Origin: a virus
Taxonomy: Duplodnaviria; Heunggongvirae; Uroviricota; Caudoviricetes
Virus record (IMG/VR): IMGVR_UViG_2585427777_000025
Length of the DNA: 10,970 nucleotides
Reading direction: 5' to 3' (one strand)
Shown: positions 1 through 10,970 of the stretch, in pieces
Layout of the letters: every line of letters begins with the position of its first letter
Numbering within the stretch: position 1 is the stretch's first letter
Notes under the pieces: generated by a model
The model's input: only the letters and a program-made list of their open reading frames with translations
Databases searched by the model: none
What the model was told of the DNA's origin: nothing
Position numbers and translations under genes: made by a program

Positions 1-1284
1 TTACAGACTTCTGGAAGGTTGCGCAGCTCTTACAACACGCGGTTGATCTTCCGCAGCGTCTTCCAGCGCACTTAAATCACGGTCTTTCACCTCTGGCATT
101 TTCAGCGCAGAGATTAAACCAATCACTGAATATGCCATGATCATAATGGCGATCGGATACCAGGATTCCGTCATGGTGCAGAAAATCCCCGCCAGGATAG
201 GACCAAAACCGGAAGCGATAAGACCACCAATTTCTTTAGAAATAGCCATCCGGGTAAAGCGGTTTTTACAGCCGAACATTTCTGCCATGGTAATGTTTTC
301 CAGAGCAAATAATCCCAGCACCGCACAGTTATGAATCACAATCAGTGCAACCATAATGGTGCTCGGGGCATAGCTTTTATCTACAATGATAGAAAGCATT
401 GGCCATGCCAGCACAATCGCGGAGGTATTCATAATAATATACGGGATCCGGCGACCAATTTTATCGGATAACCAACCAAGGAACGGAATGGTCATAAAGC
501 CGAGAATCGAACTGATCATCAATGCATCTGTTGGAATTGCTTTGTTAAACAATAACGTCTGCACTAAATAGCCTGCAAGGAAAGTCTGAATTAACCCGGA
601 GTTACCCGCCTGACCAAAACGCAGCCCTGTTGCCAGCCAGAAGGATTTGCTCTGGAACATGCTACCAGCAGGTGCAGGTTTTGCTGTCGGTTGGTTACTG
701 TCGTTAACCTTCTCAAAGACCGGGCTTTCTTTCAGATTCATACGCAACCAGATAGCAAAGACCATCACGACAACACTCGCCAGGAACGGTATACGCCATC
801 CCCACGCCAGCAGTTCCTCTTTACTGAGAATGAAGAACATAAAGGCCCAGATTGCCGTTGCGCTCAAGGTTCCGCAGTTAGTTCCCATAGCCACAAATGA
901 GGAGATAATTCCGCGCTTACCTTTTGGCGCATATTCCGCCAGCATCGTACCGGCACCGGAAATTTCCGCACCTGCACCCAACCCCTGAATAATACGCAAC
1001 GTCACCAGCAAGATGGGTGCAAAAACACCAATCTGTGCATAGGTCGGTAACACACCAATTAAGGTGGTACAGTTCCCCATCATGGTGATGGTAATAAAGA
1101 GCACTTTTTTACGCCCTATTCTGTCGCCCATTTTGCCGAAAATAAATGCTCCGACAATACGCGCCACATAACCTGCACCGTAGGTTCCCATTGCCAGAAT
1201 TAACGCCATTGCCGTTGATGATTCAGGAAAAAATATTTCATGAAACACTAACGCTGCGCCGAGCGAATATAACTGGAAATCCAT
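1..1284 (-). CDS. ydfJ: MFS-family metabolite:H+ symporter (ProP/KgtP-like), N-terminally truncated at the prophage junction
   Basis: 427-aa ORF in the track with multiple hydrophobic segments and the MFS loop motif GKMGDRIGRKK. By my recalled alignment to ProP it lacks about 28-35 N-terminal residues. An in-frame TGA sits two codons upstream of the ATG (plus 1288-1290), so the frame cannot extend. No obvious Shine-Dalgarno sequence. Stop codon is at 1-3. Confidence 0.85.
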   Translation of the reverse strand: MDFQLYSLGAALVFHEIFFPESSTAMALILAMGTYGAGYVARIVGAFIFGKMGDRIGRKKVLFITITMMGNCTTLIGVLPTYAQIGVFAPILLVTLRIIQGLGAGAEISGAGTMLAEYAPKGKRGIISSFVAMGTNCGTLSATAIWAFMFFILSKEELLAWGWRIPFLASVVVMVFAIWLRMNLKESPVFEKVNDSNQPTAKPAPAGSMFQSKSFWLATGLRFGQAGNSGLIQTFLAGYLVQTLLFNKAIPTDALMISSILGFMTIPFLGWLSDKIGRRIPYIIMNTSAIVLAWPMLSIIVDKSYAPSTIMVALIVIHNCAVLGLFALENITMAEMFGCKNRFTRMAISKEIGGLIASGFGPILAGIFCTMTESWYPIAIMIMAYSVIGLISALKMPEVKDRDLSALEDAAEDQPRVVRAAQPSRSL

Positions 1285-1888
1285 AATTCACAGGTGTTTT
1301 TTCCCATCCTGTGGTTTCCTTAGCGTTTTCTAGGTTTTTTCAGATAGTTGCATTTTTTTAAAAAGCATCCTAAGTTCGATCTCAGTGTCTATCTGGGGCC
1401 TATTTCTGTCCCATATATGCCCCAAAAAAACTCCCCAACAGATAAGTAGTTTTTTCATGGATTTATGCGTAAAATCAAGAACGGCTGGAAATCATTCAAT
1501 ACTCACACTATCGAAAAATTTACCAGCCAATCGCAGCACGTTCTTGCATAAGGCGTGTCTGCGGTTTTTCAACTATTCAGATACATCACTCCCATCACAT
1601 TCATTCCTCCGCATCAAAGGCATATAGGCTATATCACCTTGATATTTTTCTTTTTCAGATAAAAACTGTTATCTATGTATACTTTTAAACCCAATCCGTG
1701 TAGAGTCTCTGCATAAGATAGTTTGCAGTTGCCGCTTCAGCTTGCGCCATAAACCGCCTGATTTTTGCTGCCACCTGTTAGCATTCCTGTATACCTGAAA
1801 CGACAATGTTTATCTACGAACTTTAAGAACACCCAAGATAAAAATTGTCAACTATATCATATATAACACATTACTAATTCGAGGCTAT

Positions 1889-2002
1889 ATGAACAGCATA
1901 CTGATAATCACATCTCTCCTTATCATATTCAGCATTTTTAGTCATGCCCTAATAAAATTAGGGATTGGCATATCCAATAACCCAGACAAAACCGATGTAT
2001 AA
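1889..2002 (+). CDS. hypothetical small hydrophobic protein (37 aa, single predicted transmembrane helix)
   Basis: ATG at 1889 preceded by GAGG 4 nt upstream; my translation is [37 protein letters not shown], ending at TAA 2000-2002. Lies 68 bp upstream of the ydfK-like gene on the same strand. Below the size cutoff of the ORF track; no homology evidence. Confidence 0.25.
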
Positions 2003-2070
2003 GTCAACATATCCTGAATCAGACATACAATATCGCAATGAAAATCAATAATATTTTAAGGAATATCTTC

Positions 2071-2304
2071 ATGAAATCAAAAGACACCCTAAAGTGGTTC
2101 CCTGCGCAGCTTCCTGAAGTAAGAATTATCCTAGGGGATGCTGTAGTGGAAGTAGCAAAACAGGGAAGACCTATCAATACCAGAACATTGCTTGATTACA
2201 TTGAAGGAAACATAAAGAAAAAATCATGGCTGGATAACAAAGAATTATTACAAACAGCGATATCAGTTCTTAAAGACAACCAAAATTTAAATGGTAAAAT
2301 GTAA
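2071..2304 (+). CDS. ydfK: YdfK/YnaE-family small prophage protein (cold-shock-inducible family)
   Basis: 77 codons from the ATG at 2071, which has AAGGA 8 nt upstream; the track ORF 2038-2304 starts at an upstream ATG with no RBS. Sequence MKSKDTLKWFPAQLPEVRIILGD... matches my memory of YdfK/YnaE, which sit next to pin at the ends of Qin and Rac. Confidence 0.8.
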   Translation: MKSKDTLKWFPAQLPEVRIILGDAVVEVAKQGRPINTRTLLDYIEGNIKKKSWLDNKELLQTAISVLKDNQNLNGKM

Positions 2305-2620
2305 TATAATAAACTTACTTTTTTATCATTTTTCCACTTTAACAACATTTTGCTCCACTTTTCCACGACCAAACAACTTGAAATCTGGTTAAAATAACAC
2401 GCAACACTATTCTTCTTCCTTGAGTCCGCCCGGAACTCGAAAAACAAACCGAGTTAAAGCCATTTTTCACAAAATCGATTTTGGGTCTCACCAAAATTAC
2501 GGGGTTGCATACGCATTCGTTTATTTTCGAACGTGTACATACAAATATGCACAAAAATAATCATAATTATTTTCTGAGATGCATTATGATATGAACACCA
2601 ATTTCGTATAGAGTCTCACT

Positions 2621-3211
2621 ATGTCTCAAATTTTTGCTTACTGTCGGATATCAACGCTGGATCAGACCACCGAAAATCAACGCCGGGAAATCGAAAGTGC
2701 AGGTTTTAAAATCAAACCTCAGCAAATAATCGAAGAACACATTAGCGGCTCAGCAGCAACCAGTGAGCGTCCTGGTTTTAACCGGTTGCTTGCTCGCCTG
2801 AAATGTGGTGATCAATTGATTGTGACAAAACTGGATCGCCTTGGTTGTAATGCAATGGATATCAGGAAAACAGTGGAACAACTGACCGAAACAGGTATCA
2901 GAGTACATTGCTTAGCATTGGGGGGCATTGACCTGACCAGTCCAACAGGAAAAATGATGATGCAAGTAATTTCAGCAGTCGCTGAATTTGAACGAGACCT
3001 TTTACTTGAACGCACTCATTCCGGGATAGTAAGAGCCCGCGGCGCAGGGAAACGTTTTGGTCGACCACCTGTGTTAAATGAAGAACAGAAACAGGCGGTA
3101 TTCGAACGAATTAAGTCAGGTGTAAGTATAAGTGCCATTGCCCGGGAATTCAAAACCTCGCGGCAAACCATTTTAAGAGCCAAAGCAAAACTTCAGACAC
3201 CTGACATATAA
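2621..3211 (+). CDS. pinQ: serine recombinase (resolvase/invertase family), PinQ/PinR-like
   Basis: 196-aa ORF with the N-terminal catalytic motif Y-C-R-I-S-T-L-D-Q (serine recombinase Y-x-R-x-S-T-x-x-Q), the conserved [12 protein letters not shown] segment and a C-terminal helix-turn-helix region ([19 protein letters not shown]). Motifs look intact. Confidence 0.85.
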
Positions 3212-3308
3212 AAAATAATCTCGGTGTGAGATGCTTTACGTCTTCCAAGCCCCCTTCCTTGCCGTAAATGGAAAGATACATCTAATTATAGAATTTATAT
3301 GTTTTACC

Positions 3309-3884
3309 CTACGGCAGTGCTGGCCATTCAATATCCTGTGCAGTTGACGTATCAACACGGTTCAGCAATACCCGATACTTTTTCCATGCTTCCAGCAACG
3401 AGATTTCTTCCTCCGTTGCAATTTCCAGATCTGCAGCATCCTGAAGCGGCGCAATATGCTCACTGGCTACCTGCATCAGGTTGTTTTTTGTTTCTTCCGC
3501 CTCCCGGATCCGGAACAGTTTTTCTGCTTCCGTATCCTTCACCCAGGCTGTGCCGTTCCACTTCTGAAACTCCCCTTCCGGCGATAACCAGGTAACATTT
3601 TCCGGTAACGGACCGAGTTCAGAAATAAATAACGCGTCGCCGGAAGCCACGTCATAAACCGTTTTACCCCGATGATCTTCAACGAGATGCCACGATGACT
3701 CATCACTGTTGAAAACAGCCACGAAGCCAGCCGGAATATCTGGCGGTGCAATATCGGTACTGTTTGCTGGCAGACCTGTATGAGGCGGAATATATGCATC
3801 ACCTTCACCAATAAATTCATTAGTTCCGGCCAGCAGATTATAAATTTTTATGGTCCGTGGTTGTTCACTCATTCTGAATGCCAT
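3309..3884 (-). CDS. tfaQ: tail fibre assembly protein (lambda Tfa-like)
   Basis: 191-aa ORF beginning [24 protein letters not shown]..., collinear with lambda Tfa as I recall it. Its ATG (3882-3884) overlaps the stf stop (3884-3886) as TAATG, suggesting translational coupling. Confidence 0.85.
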
Positions 3885-4846
3885 TATGCAAGCCTCACAA
3901 TATAGTTAAATGCGATGTTTTTGACGGTGTTTTCCGCGTTACCAGCAGCGTTAACGGTGATGGTGTGTCCATGTGAACCAATCGCAACGGAGTGCGTATG
4001 AGCACCAATACCGACAGTATGTGCATGTGCGCCTGCGCTTGCAGCAGTGCCGGACAGCGAGTGGGTATGAGCACCATCTGATGATGTCTTCCCTGCATTA
4101 CGAGTCTGGCCACTACCGCTTGTTGTGCTCATAATCCCCGCGCTTAGATTTGAAATCGCGGTATAACCATTAGGGAAAATGCTCGTGTTCGTGCCACCAA
4201 ATGCACCGGAACTCTTGTGTTGGTGCGCACCGGCACTATTTGCGGTCCCGCTAATACTATGGGTATGCGCCCCGGTGTTATTCGTGGATTTGGTTCCGTA
4301 ATCAAACGACGATGTGGTTTTCGTCCCCAAATCCGTACTGGATGCGCTGGCGCTGTGGGTGTGCGATTTAATGCCGTCCTGTTCCTGAGATAATACGGCC
4401 CGACCACTGGCGGGCTTGCCCTTAATCGTCCAGCCACGCATATCAGGGATCACGCCTGACGGATAAGCAACTGCAAGTTTCGGGTATGCAGATTTGTCAA
4501 AAGTCTGCCCCTGCATCAGGGCATAACCAGACGGAACGGTATCTGATGGCCACGGGATTGGTGCACCGACTGGATAAAACTCTGCAGGAGGATGAGCCGA
4601 GGTGTAAAGCTGCGCCCACGGCGACCAGTTTGCGTCGGTCGTATCCCGTCGTGAACGAATAAATGCCGGAGCATGAGCACCGCTTGTACCACTCCAGCCG
4701 ATGAGTAACTCACCTTCGCCAACGGCTGTCATCCCTTTCAGGTGAATGATATTTCCATACGCTGTTGGATATCCGTTGTTATACACCTCGTATAACTCAA
4801 GACCTGCTGCCCCCTGCGTATTGTCTGTCAGCGCGGTTAACCTCAC
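3884..4846 (-). CDS. stfQ: side tail fibre protein, C-terminal (distal) fragment; 5'-truncated remnant
   Basis: Open frame 3884-4855 in the track (323 aa, TTG start). A GTG at 4844-4846 would give 320 aa. Both candidate starts lie inside sequence derived from capsid gene E; the stf-derived sequence begins around 4837 ([12 protein letters not shown]...). The C-terminal half is rich in GAHTHS / AGAHAH repeats typical of tail-fibre tips. No shaft or baseplate-attachment domain is present. Confidence 0.7.
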
Positions 4847-5024
4847 CGGAAACAATCGGCGAAACGTACAGCGCCATGTTTACCAGTCCCGGAATTTGTG
4901 AGAGATAGACTTTCTCCGTGGTGAAGGGATAGCTCTCACGGAAAAAGAGACGCAGAAACAGCGGATCAAACTTAAATTTCTGCTCATTTGCCGCCAGCAG
5001 TTGGGCGGTTGTGTACATCGACAT
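4838..5024 (-). pseudogene. E: major capsid protein E, N-terminal 62-codon remnant
   Basis: Track ORF 4797-5024 begins MSMYTTAQLLAANEQKFKFDPLFLRLFFRESYPF...VSPIVSGEV, matching the lambda gpE N-terminus as I recall it, then diverges after codon 62 into 13 out-of-frame codons and a stop. Lies about 56 bp downstream of D, as in lambda. Confidence 0.8.
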
Positions 5025-5038
5025 AAAAAAATCCCGTA

Positions 5039-5060
5039 AAAAAAAGCCGCACAGGCGGCC
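5039..5060 (-). terminator. candidate stem-loop with U-tract between D and E (weak intrinsic terminator or mRNA processing/stability element)
   Basis: On the minus strand just after the D stop: GCCGC-CTGT-GCGGC (5-bp GC stem, 4-nt loop; plus 5046-5059) followed by T7. The stem is short, so termination is likely partial at most. Coordinates may be off by 1. Confidence 0.3.
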
Positions 5061-5080
5061 TTTAGTGATGAAGGGTAAAG

Positions 5081-5413
5081 TTAAACGATGCTGATTGCCG
5101 TTCCGGCAAACGCGGTCCGTTTTTTCGTCTCGTCGCTGGCAGCCTCCGGCCAGAGCACATCCTCATAACGGAACGTGCCGGACTTGTAGAACGTCAGCGT
5201 GGTGCTGGTCTGGTCAGCAGCAACCGCAAGAATGCCAACGGCAGCACCGTCGGTGGTGCCATCCCACGCAACCAGCTTACGGCTGGAGGTGTCCAGCATC
5301 AGCGGGGTCATTGCAGGCGCTTTCGCACTCAATCCGCCGGGCGCGGTTGCGGTATGAGCCGGGTCACTGTTGCCCAGCGGCTGGTAATGGGTAAAGGTTT
5401 CTTTGCTCGTCAT
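5081..5413 (-). CDS. D: head decoration protein (lambda gpD-like)
   Basis: 110 codons from the second ATG ([27 protein letters not shown]...), matching lambda gpD length and sequence from memory; the track ORF starts two codons earlier (MFM...). Begins 9 nt after the C stop. Confidence 0.9.
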
Positions 5414-5422
5414 AAACATCCC

Positions 5423-6028
5423 TTACACTGGTGTGTTCAGCAAATCGTTAACGGCATCAGATGCCGGGTTACCTGCAGCCAGCGGTGCCGGTGCCCCCTG
5501 CATCAGACGATCCAGCGCAGTGTCACTGCGCGCCTGTGCACTCTGTGGTGCTGCGGCCAGAATGCGGCGGGCCGTTTCCACGGTCATACCGGGGGTTTCT
5601 GCCAGCACGCGTGCCTGTTCTTCGCGTCCGTGAGCCTCCTCACAGTTGAGGATCCCCATAATGCGGCTGTTTTCTGCCGCAACCGCTGCGGTGATCTGCG
5701 CGTTCACGTCCGGCTGCGCCGCGCTGGCGTTTTCGCCCTCCGTCGCTGGCACCACGTCAGTAACGTCAGCCTGCGAAGCAGTGGCTGAAACAGTTGTTGA
5801 TTGAGTCTCTTTGGTCATTCGCCCTCCTGAGAGACGGGATTTACGTGCATCCAGTGCATCACGCATGACGGTGATCGCATCGGTGCTGTTAACAAGTTCA
5901 TCAGCCAGTCCGGCATCAATGGCCTCCTGACCGCTGTACACTGCAGCCTCGGTATCCAGCACAGCCTGCACGGACAGGCCGGTATATGCCGACACCTTCT
6001 GCGCAAACATCTGGCGGGTTGCGTCCAT
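5423..6028 (-). CDS. nu3: scaffolding protein Nu3-like, in-frame internal start within C
   Basis: In-frame ATG at 6026-6028 (MDATRQMFAQKVSAYTG...) gives 201 aa sharing the C stop, the nested arrangement known for lambda C/Nu3. No strong Shine-Dalgarno seen; assigned by position and length. Confidence 0.55.
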   Translation of the reverse strand: MDATRQMFAQKVSAYTGLSVQAVLDTEAAVYSGQEAIDAGLADELVNSTDAITVMRDALDARKSRLSGGRMTKETQSTTVSATASQADVTDVVPATEGENASAAQPDVNAQITAAVAAENSRIMGILNCEEAHGREEQARVLAETPGMTVETARRILAAAPQSAQARSDTALDRLMQGAPAPLAAGNPASDAVNDLLNTPV

Positions 6029-6722
6029 CCGGGACTGCAGTGTCTCCCGGACGTCATCCGGAAGATGGCTGTAGGGGTTGCCATCCACCTTATGGCTGCC
6101 GCTGTAAATCAGAGTGATTTCCACACCCTGTTTCTCCAGCGCAGCACCGTAATTACTGTGAGCCATCATGACGCCGATGGAGCCTGTCCGGGCGGTCTGC
6201 GTGACCAGACGCCGGGAGGCGGCACTGGCAAGCAGCTGACCTGCACTGCAGTTCATGTCGTTGGCCAGCGCCCATACCGGTTTTATGTCACGCACACGGG
6301 CGATGATGTCAGCGCAGTCAAATGCCCCCGCCACCATCCCGCCGGGCGTGTCCATATCGAGCAGAATGCCGTCCACCATCGGATCGCTGGCAGCCTGTTG
6401 CAGACGGGCGATAATGCCGTTGTAACCGGTCATCCCCGAGTACGGCTGCAGCGCCCGCGTCCGGCTGACCAGCGTGCCGGACACCGGCAGCACGGCGATG
6501 CCGTTCATGACCTGATAACTGCGGGCCTGTCGTGGTCCGTCATCATCACCGGATAATGCCAGCGTCGCGAGTGCCTCCTGGGCAGTCAGGCTGTCGCCGG
6601 ACACCGCATCCATCAGGCGGCTGATCCCAAGCTGGCCTGCAAGCGCACAAAAGAAAACCCGCGCATAGGCGGGTTCAAGCATCAGCGGCTCATTAAAAGC
6701 CATGCTGGCAATATGCGGGAGA

Positions 6723-6742
<20 letters not shown>
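5423..6742 (-). CDS. C: prohead protease / minor capsid protein (lambda gpC-like, ClpP/S49-like fold)
   Basis: 439 codons from a GTG at 6740-6742 (VTAELRNLPHIASMAFNEPLML...), preceded by GAGGAGGAGAAGA; the track ORF extends further upstream in frame through the overlap with B. The start overlaps the end of B by 20 nt. Confidence 0.9.
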
Positions 6743-10424
<3,682 letters not shown>

Positions 10425-10450
<26 letters not shown>

Positions 10451-10970
10451 TCAGCAACCCCGGTATCAGTTCATCCAGCGCGGCTGCTTTGTTCATGGCT
10501 TTGATGATATCCCGTTTCAGGAAATCAACATGTCGGTTTTCCAGTTCCGGAAAACGCCGCTGCACCGACAGGGGGATCCCGTCGAGAATACTGGCAATTT
10601 CACCTGCGATCCGCGACAGCACGAAAGTACAGAATGCGGTTTCCACCACTTCAGCGGAGTCTCTGGCATTTTTCAGCTCCTGTGCGTCGGCCTGCGCACG
10701 CGTAAGTCGATGGCGTTCGTACTCAATAGTCCCTGGCTGGAGATCTGTCTCGCTGGCCTGCCGCAGTTCTTCAACTTCCCGGCGCAGCTTTTCGTTCTCA
10801 ATTTCAGCATCCCTTTCGGCATACCATCTTATAACGGCGGCAGAGTCATAAAGCACCTCATTACCCTTGCCACCGCCTCGCAGAACGGGCATTCCCTGTT
10901 CCTGCCAGTTCTGAATGGTACGGATACTCGCACCGAAAATGTCAGCCAGCTGCTTTTTGTTGACTTCCAT
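10425..10970 (-). CDS. nu1: terminase small subunit (lambda Nu1-like)
   Basis: 181-aa ORF MEVNKKQLADIFGASIRTIQNWQEQGMPVLRGGGKGNEVLYDS..., with the N-terminal winged-HTH DNA-binding region. The start codon is the last 3 nt of the window, so cos and any upstream sequence lie outside it. Confidence 0.9.

Follow-up and report, generated by a model that had tools for sequence, protein, structure and literature searches.

A reused TA deletion endpoint in the side tail fibre gene of a decayed Qin prophage of Escherichia coli

The 10,970-nt stretch of viral DNA analysed here (IMG/VR record IMGVR_UViG_2585427777_000025; hereafter, the window) carries a remnant of the capsid gene E that runs into the distal part of a side tail fibre gene, stf, and it is the stf endpoint of this deletion that concerns us. 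Open reading frame (ORF) listing, Pfam scans and BLAST against annotated genomes confirmed the whole window as the locus of Qin, a cryptic lambdoid prophage of Escherichia coli, with the gene order ydfJ'-ydfK-pinQ-tfaQ-'stf | E'-D-C-B-W-A-nu1. Both hallmarks of Qin are present: integration in ydfJ followed by ydfJ'-ynfT-ydfK-pinQ-tfaQ-'stf, collinear with K-12, and, beyond the stf remnant, the nu1 homologue nohA, here with 5.6 kb of head genes in between. Over positions 1-4839, identity is 99.8% to K-12 Qin and 99.9% to the corresponding regions of MLI105 and WP2-S18-ESBL-08, while 4834-10970 is collinear with lambda 6325-191 at 98.9% identity. The window contains the following features.

1..1284, minus strand: ydfJ', host major facilitator superfamily (MFS) transporter gene cut by the prophage, a marker of the Qin locus
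2071-2304: ydfK
2621..3211, plus strand: pinQ, serine invertase gene, convergent with tfaQ (Pfam Resolvase and HTH_7)
3309..3884, minus strand: tfaQ, intact tail-fibre assembly gene (Pfam Caudo_TAP)
3884..4837, minus strand: 'stf, the last 318 codons (T707-A1024) and stop of a Qin-type side tail fibre gene, with a Collar domain and fibre repeat
4826..4839: retained left half of the recurrent stf breakpoint site, CTGTCAGCGCGGT-TA
4838..4839: crossover dinucleotide TA, common to both parents
4797..5024, minus strand: E' remnant ORF, with 62 lambda-type gpE codons, 13 out-of-frame codons of stf DNA and TGA
5081..5419, minus strand: D, head decoration gene, intact
5423..6742, minus strand: C/nu3, head protease and scaffold (439-aa gene call, Peptidase_S49)
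6723..8324, minus strand: B, portal gene
8321..8527, minus strand: W, head-tail joining gene
8524..10450, minus strand: A, terminase large subunit, a pseudogene with one additional T in a T-run at about 9010
10425..10970, minus strand: nu1 (nohA), terminase small subunit; TA at 10440-10441 is the partner site used in K-12

Alignment of the window with K-12, with lambda E and with an intact stf served to map the junction. The plus strand reads AGCGCGGTTA ACCTCACCGG at 4830-4849 and ...GTCTGTCAGCGCGGTTAACCTCACCGGAAAC... across the junction as a whole. Identity to stf extends up through 4839, and identity to E extends down through 4838. Because the T at 4837 is stf-specific (A in lambda E) and the A at 4840 is E-specific (C in the intact stf), the crossover is confined to the TA at 4838-4839, which corresponds to the third base of codon 62 and the first base of codon 63 in E and to the second and third bases of codon V706 in stf. 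Microhomology between the parents comprises this shared TA and, one base further out, CGG (CGGTTA in stf, CGGATA in E).

On one side of the junction, E is lambda-like through codon 62 plus one base, and E' is 99.5% identical to lambda. It covers only positions 1-62 of 329 of the Pfam profile Phage_cap_E and is a remnant rather than a capsid gene, the full length being about 329 profile positions or 341 aa. On the other side, the ACC at 4837-4835 is T707 of the 1024-aa intact Stf of MLI105 (...ASKGRV|, then T707), so that the N-terminal tail-attachment domain and the shaft (residues 1-706) are absent and T707-A1024 are left. The C-terminal, receptor-binding part is thus kept, with an intact tfaQ directly downstream. 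A sequence-only reading of the window had followed gpE through ...VSPIVSGEV into 13 foreign codons and a stop, as the ORF at 5024-4797 and the Pfam extent bear out, and had seen another frame lead from about 4837 into the Stf C-terminal domain, with coordinates and frames that proved correct; its breakpoint now narrows to the TA dinucleotide. That reading had recognised neither the Qin locus nor the recurrence of the stf breakpoint, which K-12 shares. The analysis confirmed that a deletion fused E, out of frame, to the distal third of stf.

The intact phage PhiR26_1, whose lambda-type head genes are 98.9% identical to window positions 4834-10970 and which carries this same stf allele, served as a measure of what has been lost. 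Its genes are ordered nu1-A-W-B-C-D-E-FI-FII-Z-U-V-G-T-H-M-L-K-I-J-lom-stf-tfa, as they are in lambda. Relative to PhiR26_1, the window lacks the remainder of E, FI through J (that is, FI-FII and every tail gene), lom and stf codons 1-706. The whole tail module accordingly parts E from stf in intact phages, as had been supposed, with a spacing of about 13-15 kb in lambda and PhiR26_1. No relative was found in which E adjoins stf, and the sequence past codon 62 is stf; a deletion is therefore the right reading. The sequence-only reading had envisaged a single loss of roughly 14 kb. The loss of the tail module stands, the size does not (the two TA dinucleotides are 15,453 bp apart in PhiR26_1), and a single step is indistinguishable from nested deletions reusing the stf endpoint.

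The junction is not peculiar to one assembly. The 75-residue chimeric E' product was located, by look-up, on NCBI, ENA and Logan contigs from different samples, and the same junction 31-mer occurs in six independent public contigs, one of which (JOST01000155.1 of GCA_000713855.1) is 100% identical to the window across all 10,970 nt. Its recurrence in independent assemblies indicates that it is real and not a misassembly. The exact junction was absent from 5,426 complete RefSeq E. coli genomes and from GTDB and species-representative genomes; it is a rare allele, missing from complete RefSeq genomes.

A first sign that the stf endpoint recurs came from K-12, in which Qin matches the window perfectly to 4839 and then runs into nohA. 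K-12 Qin equals the window minus 4840-10441, the matching blocks overlapping by the 2-nt TA, and 10442-10970 is identical to K-12 nohA at 529 of 529 positions. The two prophages thus share the locus, the flanks (99.8% over 4,839 nt), nohA, the stf endpoint nucleotide and the TA overlap. They differ in the partner, since K-12 joins the stf TA to nu1 codon 176/177, whereas the window joins it to E codon 62/63 and keeps A-W-B-C-D-E'. The K-12 junction could have arisen by a further deletion from this endpoint in an ancestor resembling the window, or independently. Independent decay does occur, as the closest relatives demonstrate: stf is intact in MLI105, from which W through lom' is gone, WP2-S18 lacks stf 4795 through A 8891, and neither state is derivable from the window, nor the window from them. 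Among closely related strains, Qin is found in many states of decay (L005-L009, L017), some associated with IS3 or IS903, and one prophage at the Qin locus has an HK97-type head module.

Searches beyond Qin extended the series. In P377, a remnant located at att-lambda/bio joins E codon 153 to this stf endpoint, and pattern and BLAST searches added a second nu1 site, gene Z, the end of lom and a non-lambda portal gene as partners. A J-related gene serves as partner in the Rac locus of PCP06171 as well as in one metagenome contig. In the Qin locus of GPEC1054 the partner is a ClpP-type head protease gene, and in the Rac locus of NCTC9066 it is an internal stf site; five junctions at this endpoint come from metagenomes. 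In total, the same TA, in the context ...GCGCGG(T/C)-TA-CCCGACC..., ends deletions with 16 different partners. Among the partners are E codons 62, 153 and 296, nu1 (two sites), A codon 81, B, Z, L, I/K, J, lom, the stf shaft, three genes of HK97-type head modules and a site near ynaK. The prophages concerned occupy three loci (Qin, Rac and att-lambda) and have head modules of two kinds.

To avoid the bias of searching for the endpoint itself, we searched IMG/VR with a 27-nt anchor placed 21-48 nt left of the TA and recorded where each contig departed from the intact gene. Of 105 evaluable contigs, 91 were continuous through the site and 14 were interrupted at precisely this point, with 12 distinct partners among them; over the following 2.1 kb, the other departures were mostly shared allelic indels. 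An anchor on the other side revealed one deletion in the opposite direction from the same TA (L130), by which the Stf shaft is fused in frame to the C-terminal part of Tfa. The 93 other copies ran through, and their sole departures, at least 75 nt to the left, were shared allelic differences. In an stf allele of enterohaemorrhagic E. coli (EHEC) type that is 91% identical to the Qin-type one (L132, L133-L154), GGTCAGCCG replaces GGTTACCCG, and none of its 23 IMG/VR copies was broken at the site; this agrees with a need for TA, although it is not significant alone. Together, these searches show the stf endpoint to be a base-precise recurrent breakpoint, used in at least 16 different deletions.

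We then considered the sequence rules of the exchange. The intact stf site, CGGTTACCCG, fits the dyad CGGNTANCCG and is the sole match to it in the 48-kb PhiR26_1 genome; K-12 is without an intact copy. A native TA lay at the exchange point in all 11 partners that could be mapped onto lambda or PhiR26_1, against a background of about 3% of positions (642 TA in 21.6 kb). Wherever the parents mismatch beside the TA, the product base before it is always that of stf and the base after it always that of the partner, so that the switch sits at the TA rather than anywhere in the patch of homology. The retained flank of the partner is enriched for TA-N-C-C-G (n = 16; C at +2 in 11, C at +3 in 11 and G at +4 in 9; base frequencies C 0.31, G 0.26), and TAACC, found at 16 of 642 TA sites, occurs at 4 of 10 mapped partners. 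Some partners share the left flank instead, for example Z with CGCGGTTA. Microhomology at the exchange ranges from 2 to 8 nt, as illustrated by CGCGGTTA in Z and by TAACCGAC at A codon 81 compared with TACCCGAC in stf. All mapped events are in deletion orientation, with no inversion in about 18. The codon phase of the fusion was shared by four of five lambda-gene partners, which is not significant (p ~0.14).

Similar exchanges were encountered elsewhere. A second reused endpoint lies in gene C/nu3 (PhiR26_1 reverse-complement 22382/22383, ...GCATCACGCAT(G)|) and has two distinct partners, each in its own prophage locus (L046 and L001, the latter being P377). Other prophage deletion junctions (L115, L114, the second of L127 and the third of L001) read GTTA|AC or GATA|AC, with CCCGTTA|ACGATG, GCTGTTA|ACGG and GGAGATA|ACCGAC as examples, and two unrelated events made use of the A-codon-81 site TAACCGAC. 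The TA-centred rule may thus hold more generally, beyond the stf endpoint.

From the reused, base-precise endpoint, the TA in both parents, the similarity of flanks and the deletion-only outcome, we infer a sequence-directed event at the near-palindromic stf site, namely a staggered break or strand exchange with the TA at its centre. The stf side would then be linked to another TA, lying upstream in the late operon, with preference for one whose flanks are similar (TA-N-C-C-G); the outer ends would be joined and the intervening DNA lost. The retained half-site would survive each event, allowing nested deletions. We consider it probable that Qin decayed in the window by TA-to-TA deletion, at a recurrent stf breakpoint, through such a sequence-directed event. 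More tentatively, a sequence-specific breaking or strand-exchanging activity encoded by E. coli or by lambdoid phages might act on CGGNTANCCG-like sites with a TA crossover, eroding prophages stepwise from a fixed point in stf and sometimes making in-frame fusions of the receptor-binding tip to new N-termini; we hold this possible while rating it as doubtful. If it were true, the structure of Qin in the K-12 reference would be one product of such an activity.

Several points weigh against a sequence-directed event. The number of truly independent deletions is uncertain, as some junctions may be nested descendants of others, and the strong bias towards deletion on the upstream side may stem partly from selection or sampling. 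Similarity of the partner flanks is modest overall (mean 4.6 versus 3.6 of 12 positions, p ~0.02), and the EHEC-type (CA) allele is a small control, its 0/23 versus 14/105 falling short of significance by itself. Three further junctions are displaced by one base, with partners that have no TA: GGTT|G in L035 and GGTTAC|A in L058 and L089; these fit better with break-and-join than with a strict recombinase. Lastly, no enzyme emerged among the candidates examined (Pin, type IIA topoisomerase, IS30, Rpn and others). The stf site is unlike the e14 pix sites inverted by PinQ, with their AAACC-NN-GGTTT core; in the TA-centred register, it lacks the determinants -4G/+8C, -2A/+6T and -1T/+5A of type IIA topoisomerases; and it is unrelated in sequence to the IS30 lambda hotspot (LHS, 33,290).

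Replication pausing with template switching was weighed as a first alternative. A nascent strand would repeatedly stall at the stf site and re-prime, through short terminal homology, at another TA upstream or downstream, producing a deletion by copy choice. Such a process accommodates the exclusive occurrence of deletions and the variable microhomology of 2 to 8 nt, and the one-base-displaced events would suit a 3' end with some play. However, inspection of the sequence shows neither a strong hairpin nor a known pause signal at the site, different events use homology on different sides of the TA, a feature left unexplained by one stalled 3' end, and the switch point never slips within imperfect homologies. 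We regard template switching as unlikely.

Mis-joining by gyrase or topoisomerase IV, enzymes of type IIA, appears quite improbable for other reasons. Here, four-base 5' overhangs would pair at the TA, the mismatched, tyrosine-linked ends would be removed and the gaps filled. This reproduces the product rule (the stf base before the TA, the partner base after it), and the two TTAC| junctions look like a filled-in 5' overhang. The flanks are dyad-symmetric, and a crude match to the gyrase consensus is found in a neighbouring register, T|TACC|C (z = 2.8, within 16 bp on either side). Gyrase-mediated illegitimate recombination is itself established, through the work of Ikeda and colleagues. Yet the expected products derived from the bottom strand were not seen, the full 130-bp motif scores unremarkably (z = 0.7), and the mismatch to the cleavage determinants applies here as well. 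Those determinants are conserved in type IIA enzymes, which cut with a 4-bp stagger (PMC10117906).

Pin-type serine invertases (PinQ, PinR and PinE) are a further candidate, encoded beside tfa, with pinQ 100 bp from tfaQ. On this explanation, they would recombine the stf site with upstream quasi-sites through a 2-bp central overlap, in the manner of the P1 Cin quasi-site deletions. PinQ is active on the P segment of e14 and acts in trans (PMC12529663), a 2-bp overlap in a symmetric site is what serine recombinases use, and invertases have been suggested in the literature to drive stf exchange (PMC3945230). Nevertheless, the stf site does not resemble the e14 pix sites, which an inverted-repeat search identified as AAACCTTGGTTTGGGAGAA and TTCTCCCAAACCAACGTTT, and the P377 remnant has no adjacent pin. 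A palindromic TA core predicts inversions as often as deletions, against none in about 18 events, and the three one-base-displaced junctions have partners without TA. A scan of the window for the Din core (26-bp imperfect dyad, AAACC-NN-GGTTT) gave no match at 4826-4852, and no inverted repeat was found to pair with the junction. Pin-type recombination is thus very unlikely to have produced this endpoint. With regard to the P1 cix sites, the motif falls within the homology between P1 Sv' and the stf module, but at a point 211 bp inside cixL rather than at cixL itself. At about 2437-2458, 5' of pinQ, AAAAACAAACC-GA-GTTAAAGCC resembles the left half of a Din-type crossover site (AAACC and central GA) with a degenerate right half, and may be left over from an invertible segment that once lay at the 5' end of pinQ.

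A one-off random illegitimate deletion, with an endpoint shared with K-12 and others by chance or ancestry, is highly improbable. Prophage decay by deletion is common, close relatives have other endpoints (lom'|A in MLI105, stf 4794|A 8892 in WP2-S18) and breaks in L005 and L009 are associated with insertion sequences (IS). Against this, 16 different partners meet at one dinucleotide in three loci and two head-module types, TA is present in every mappable partner, and shared ancestry cannot yield different partners without reuse of the endpoint. An assembly or sequencing artefact joining two unrelated contigs, for which the absence of the exact junction from the complete RefSeq and GTDB genomes and two homopolymer-length differences from lambda might speak, can practically be dismissed, given the identical junction in six contigs from different samples and parents that share just TA plus CGG, far below what misleads an assembler.

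Several other site types were rejected. Cos-like or terminase cleavage, the lambda att core and a Xer/dif arm, as well as integron GTT, the IS608 target TTAC, RuvC/RusA preferences and BstEII (GGTNACC), did not fit the TA exchange point when compared by eye, and the published Rpn nuclease is without sequence specificity. At 4816-4827, TGCGTATTGTCT matches, base for base, the essential single-stranded portion of the nic site of the R388 TrwC relaxase (PMC4176350, PMC4814116). Nicking by TrwC was rejected, as the predicted nick (4827/4828) would fall 12 nt away from the junction and there is no hairpin arm; the match is probably coincidental.

The preferred reading, a sequence-directed break or exchange at the stf TA, has parallels in known systems. 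Int-promoted deletions of lambda (b2 type), said to have been described by Davis and Parkinson in 1971, reportedly combine a fixed endpoint in the att core with a second one at secondary sites. They resemble the stf family in having one base-precise shared endpoint and a variable second one chosen by partial similarity, but the stf site is unrelated to any att core, the prophages have different integrases and the overlap is 2 bp instead of 7 bp. Quasi-site recombination by Cin, Gin and Pin, reportedly the subject of work by Iida and Hiestand-Nauer in 1987, is alike in its matched 2-bp crossover and in the tail-fibre gene next to an invertase gene; it differs in that the fixed stf site is without the Din consensus and no inversions were seen. 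The illegitimate recombination that Ikeda and colleagues are said to have traced to gyrase, independent of short homology, has in common with our series the hotspot endpoints with little homology and the deletion outcome, whereas its cleavage determinants are unmatched at the stf site in the TA-centred register and a TA requirement is not a known feature of gyrase. The chimeric StfE2 of e14, made by reversible, in-frame Pin inversion, shows that a rearranged C-terminal Stf fragment can function (PMC12529663). Like the window, e14 is a cryptic prophage with such a fragment next to pin; unlike it, the window contains an irreversible deletion and an out-of-frame fusion.

Taken alone, the junction represents ordinary prophage decay; neither this cryptic prophage locus nor an event of this type is new. 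For the recurrent TA breakpoint, no description was found in the literature searched; it is a variation on known hotspots of illegitimate recombination. What is added is the reuse of one tail-fibre nucleotide as a deletion endpoint across many E. coli lineages, three loci and two head types, which explains the long-known arrangement of stfQ and nohA in K-12. Endpoint precision of this order argues for a sequence-directed break or exchange and not random loss. It also gives a testable entry to the question of how prophages are taken apart yet keep the receptor-binding tip, tfa and pin, a kind of gene set that can block phage adsorption according to a 2025 study.

With respect to the fate of the remnants, the mechanical ORF of 'stf extends to TTG 4855 (323 aa), and public gene calls give 320 or 300 residues. 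The earlier view that TTG 4855 and GTG 4846 were the only start codons does not hold, since GTG 4786 and ATG 4732 are also in frame inside the stf part and one public call uses an internal start (300 aa). Inspection of the sequence revealed no Shine-Dalgarno motif before 4855 or 4846, nor was a promoter-like site found nearby on the stf strand, and for these reasons a chimeric E-stf product is conjecture. In view of the out-of-frame fusion, the end of E' after 13 foreign codons and an stf fragment without a proper start or ribosome-binding site, E' and 'stf are most likely pseudogenes. Judged by its gene content, the prophage cannot make particles. Elsewhere, the same hotspot has joined the N-terminus of a portal protein (175 aa) in frame to the Stf tip, resulting in a 479-aa ORF (L011/L057).

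Two homopolymer-length differences from lambda were noted among the head genes. At 9004-9012, gene A has seven T as compared with six in lambda, which divides it into ORFs of 489 aa and 219 aa; as the split is seen in independent assemblies, the frameshift is real. The D-E intergenic region at 5027-5062 has one extra A (A8 versus A7 in lambda) beside the D-E stem-loop, which is an annotated terminator in phage HK629.

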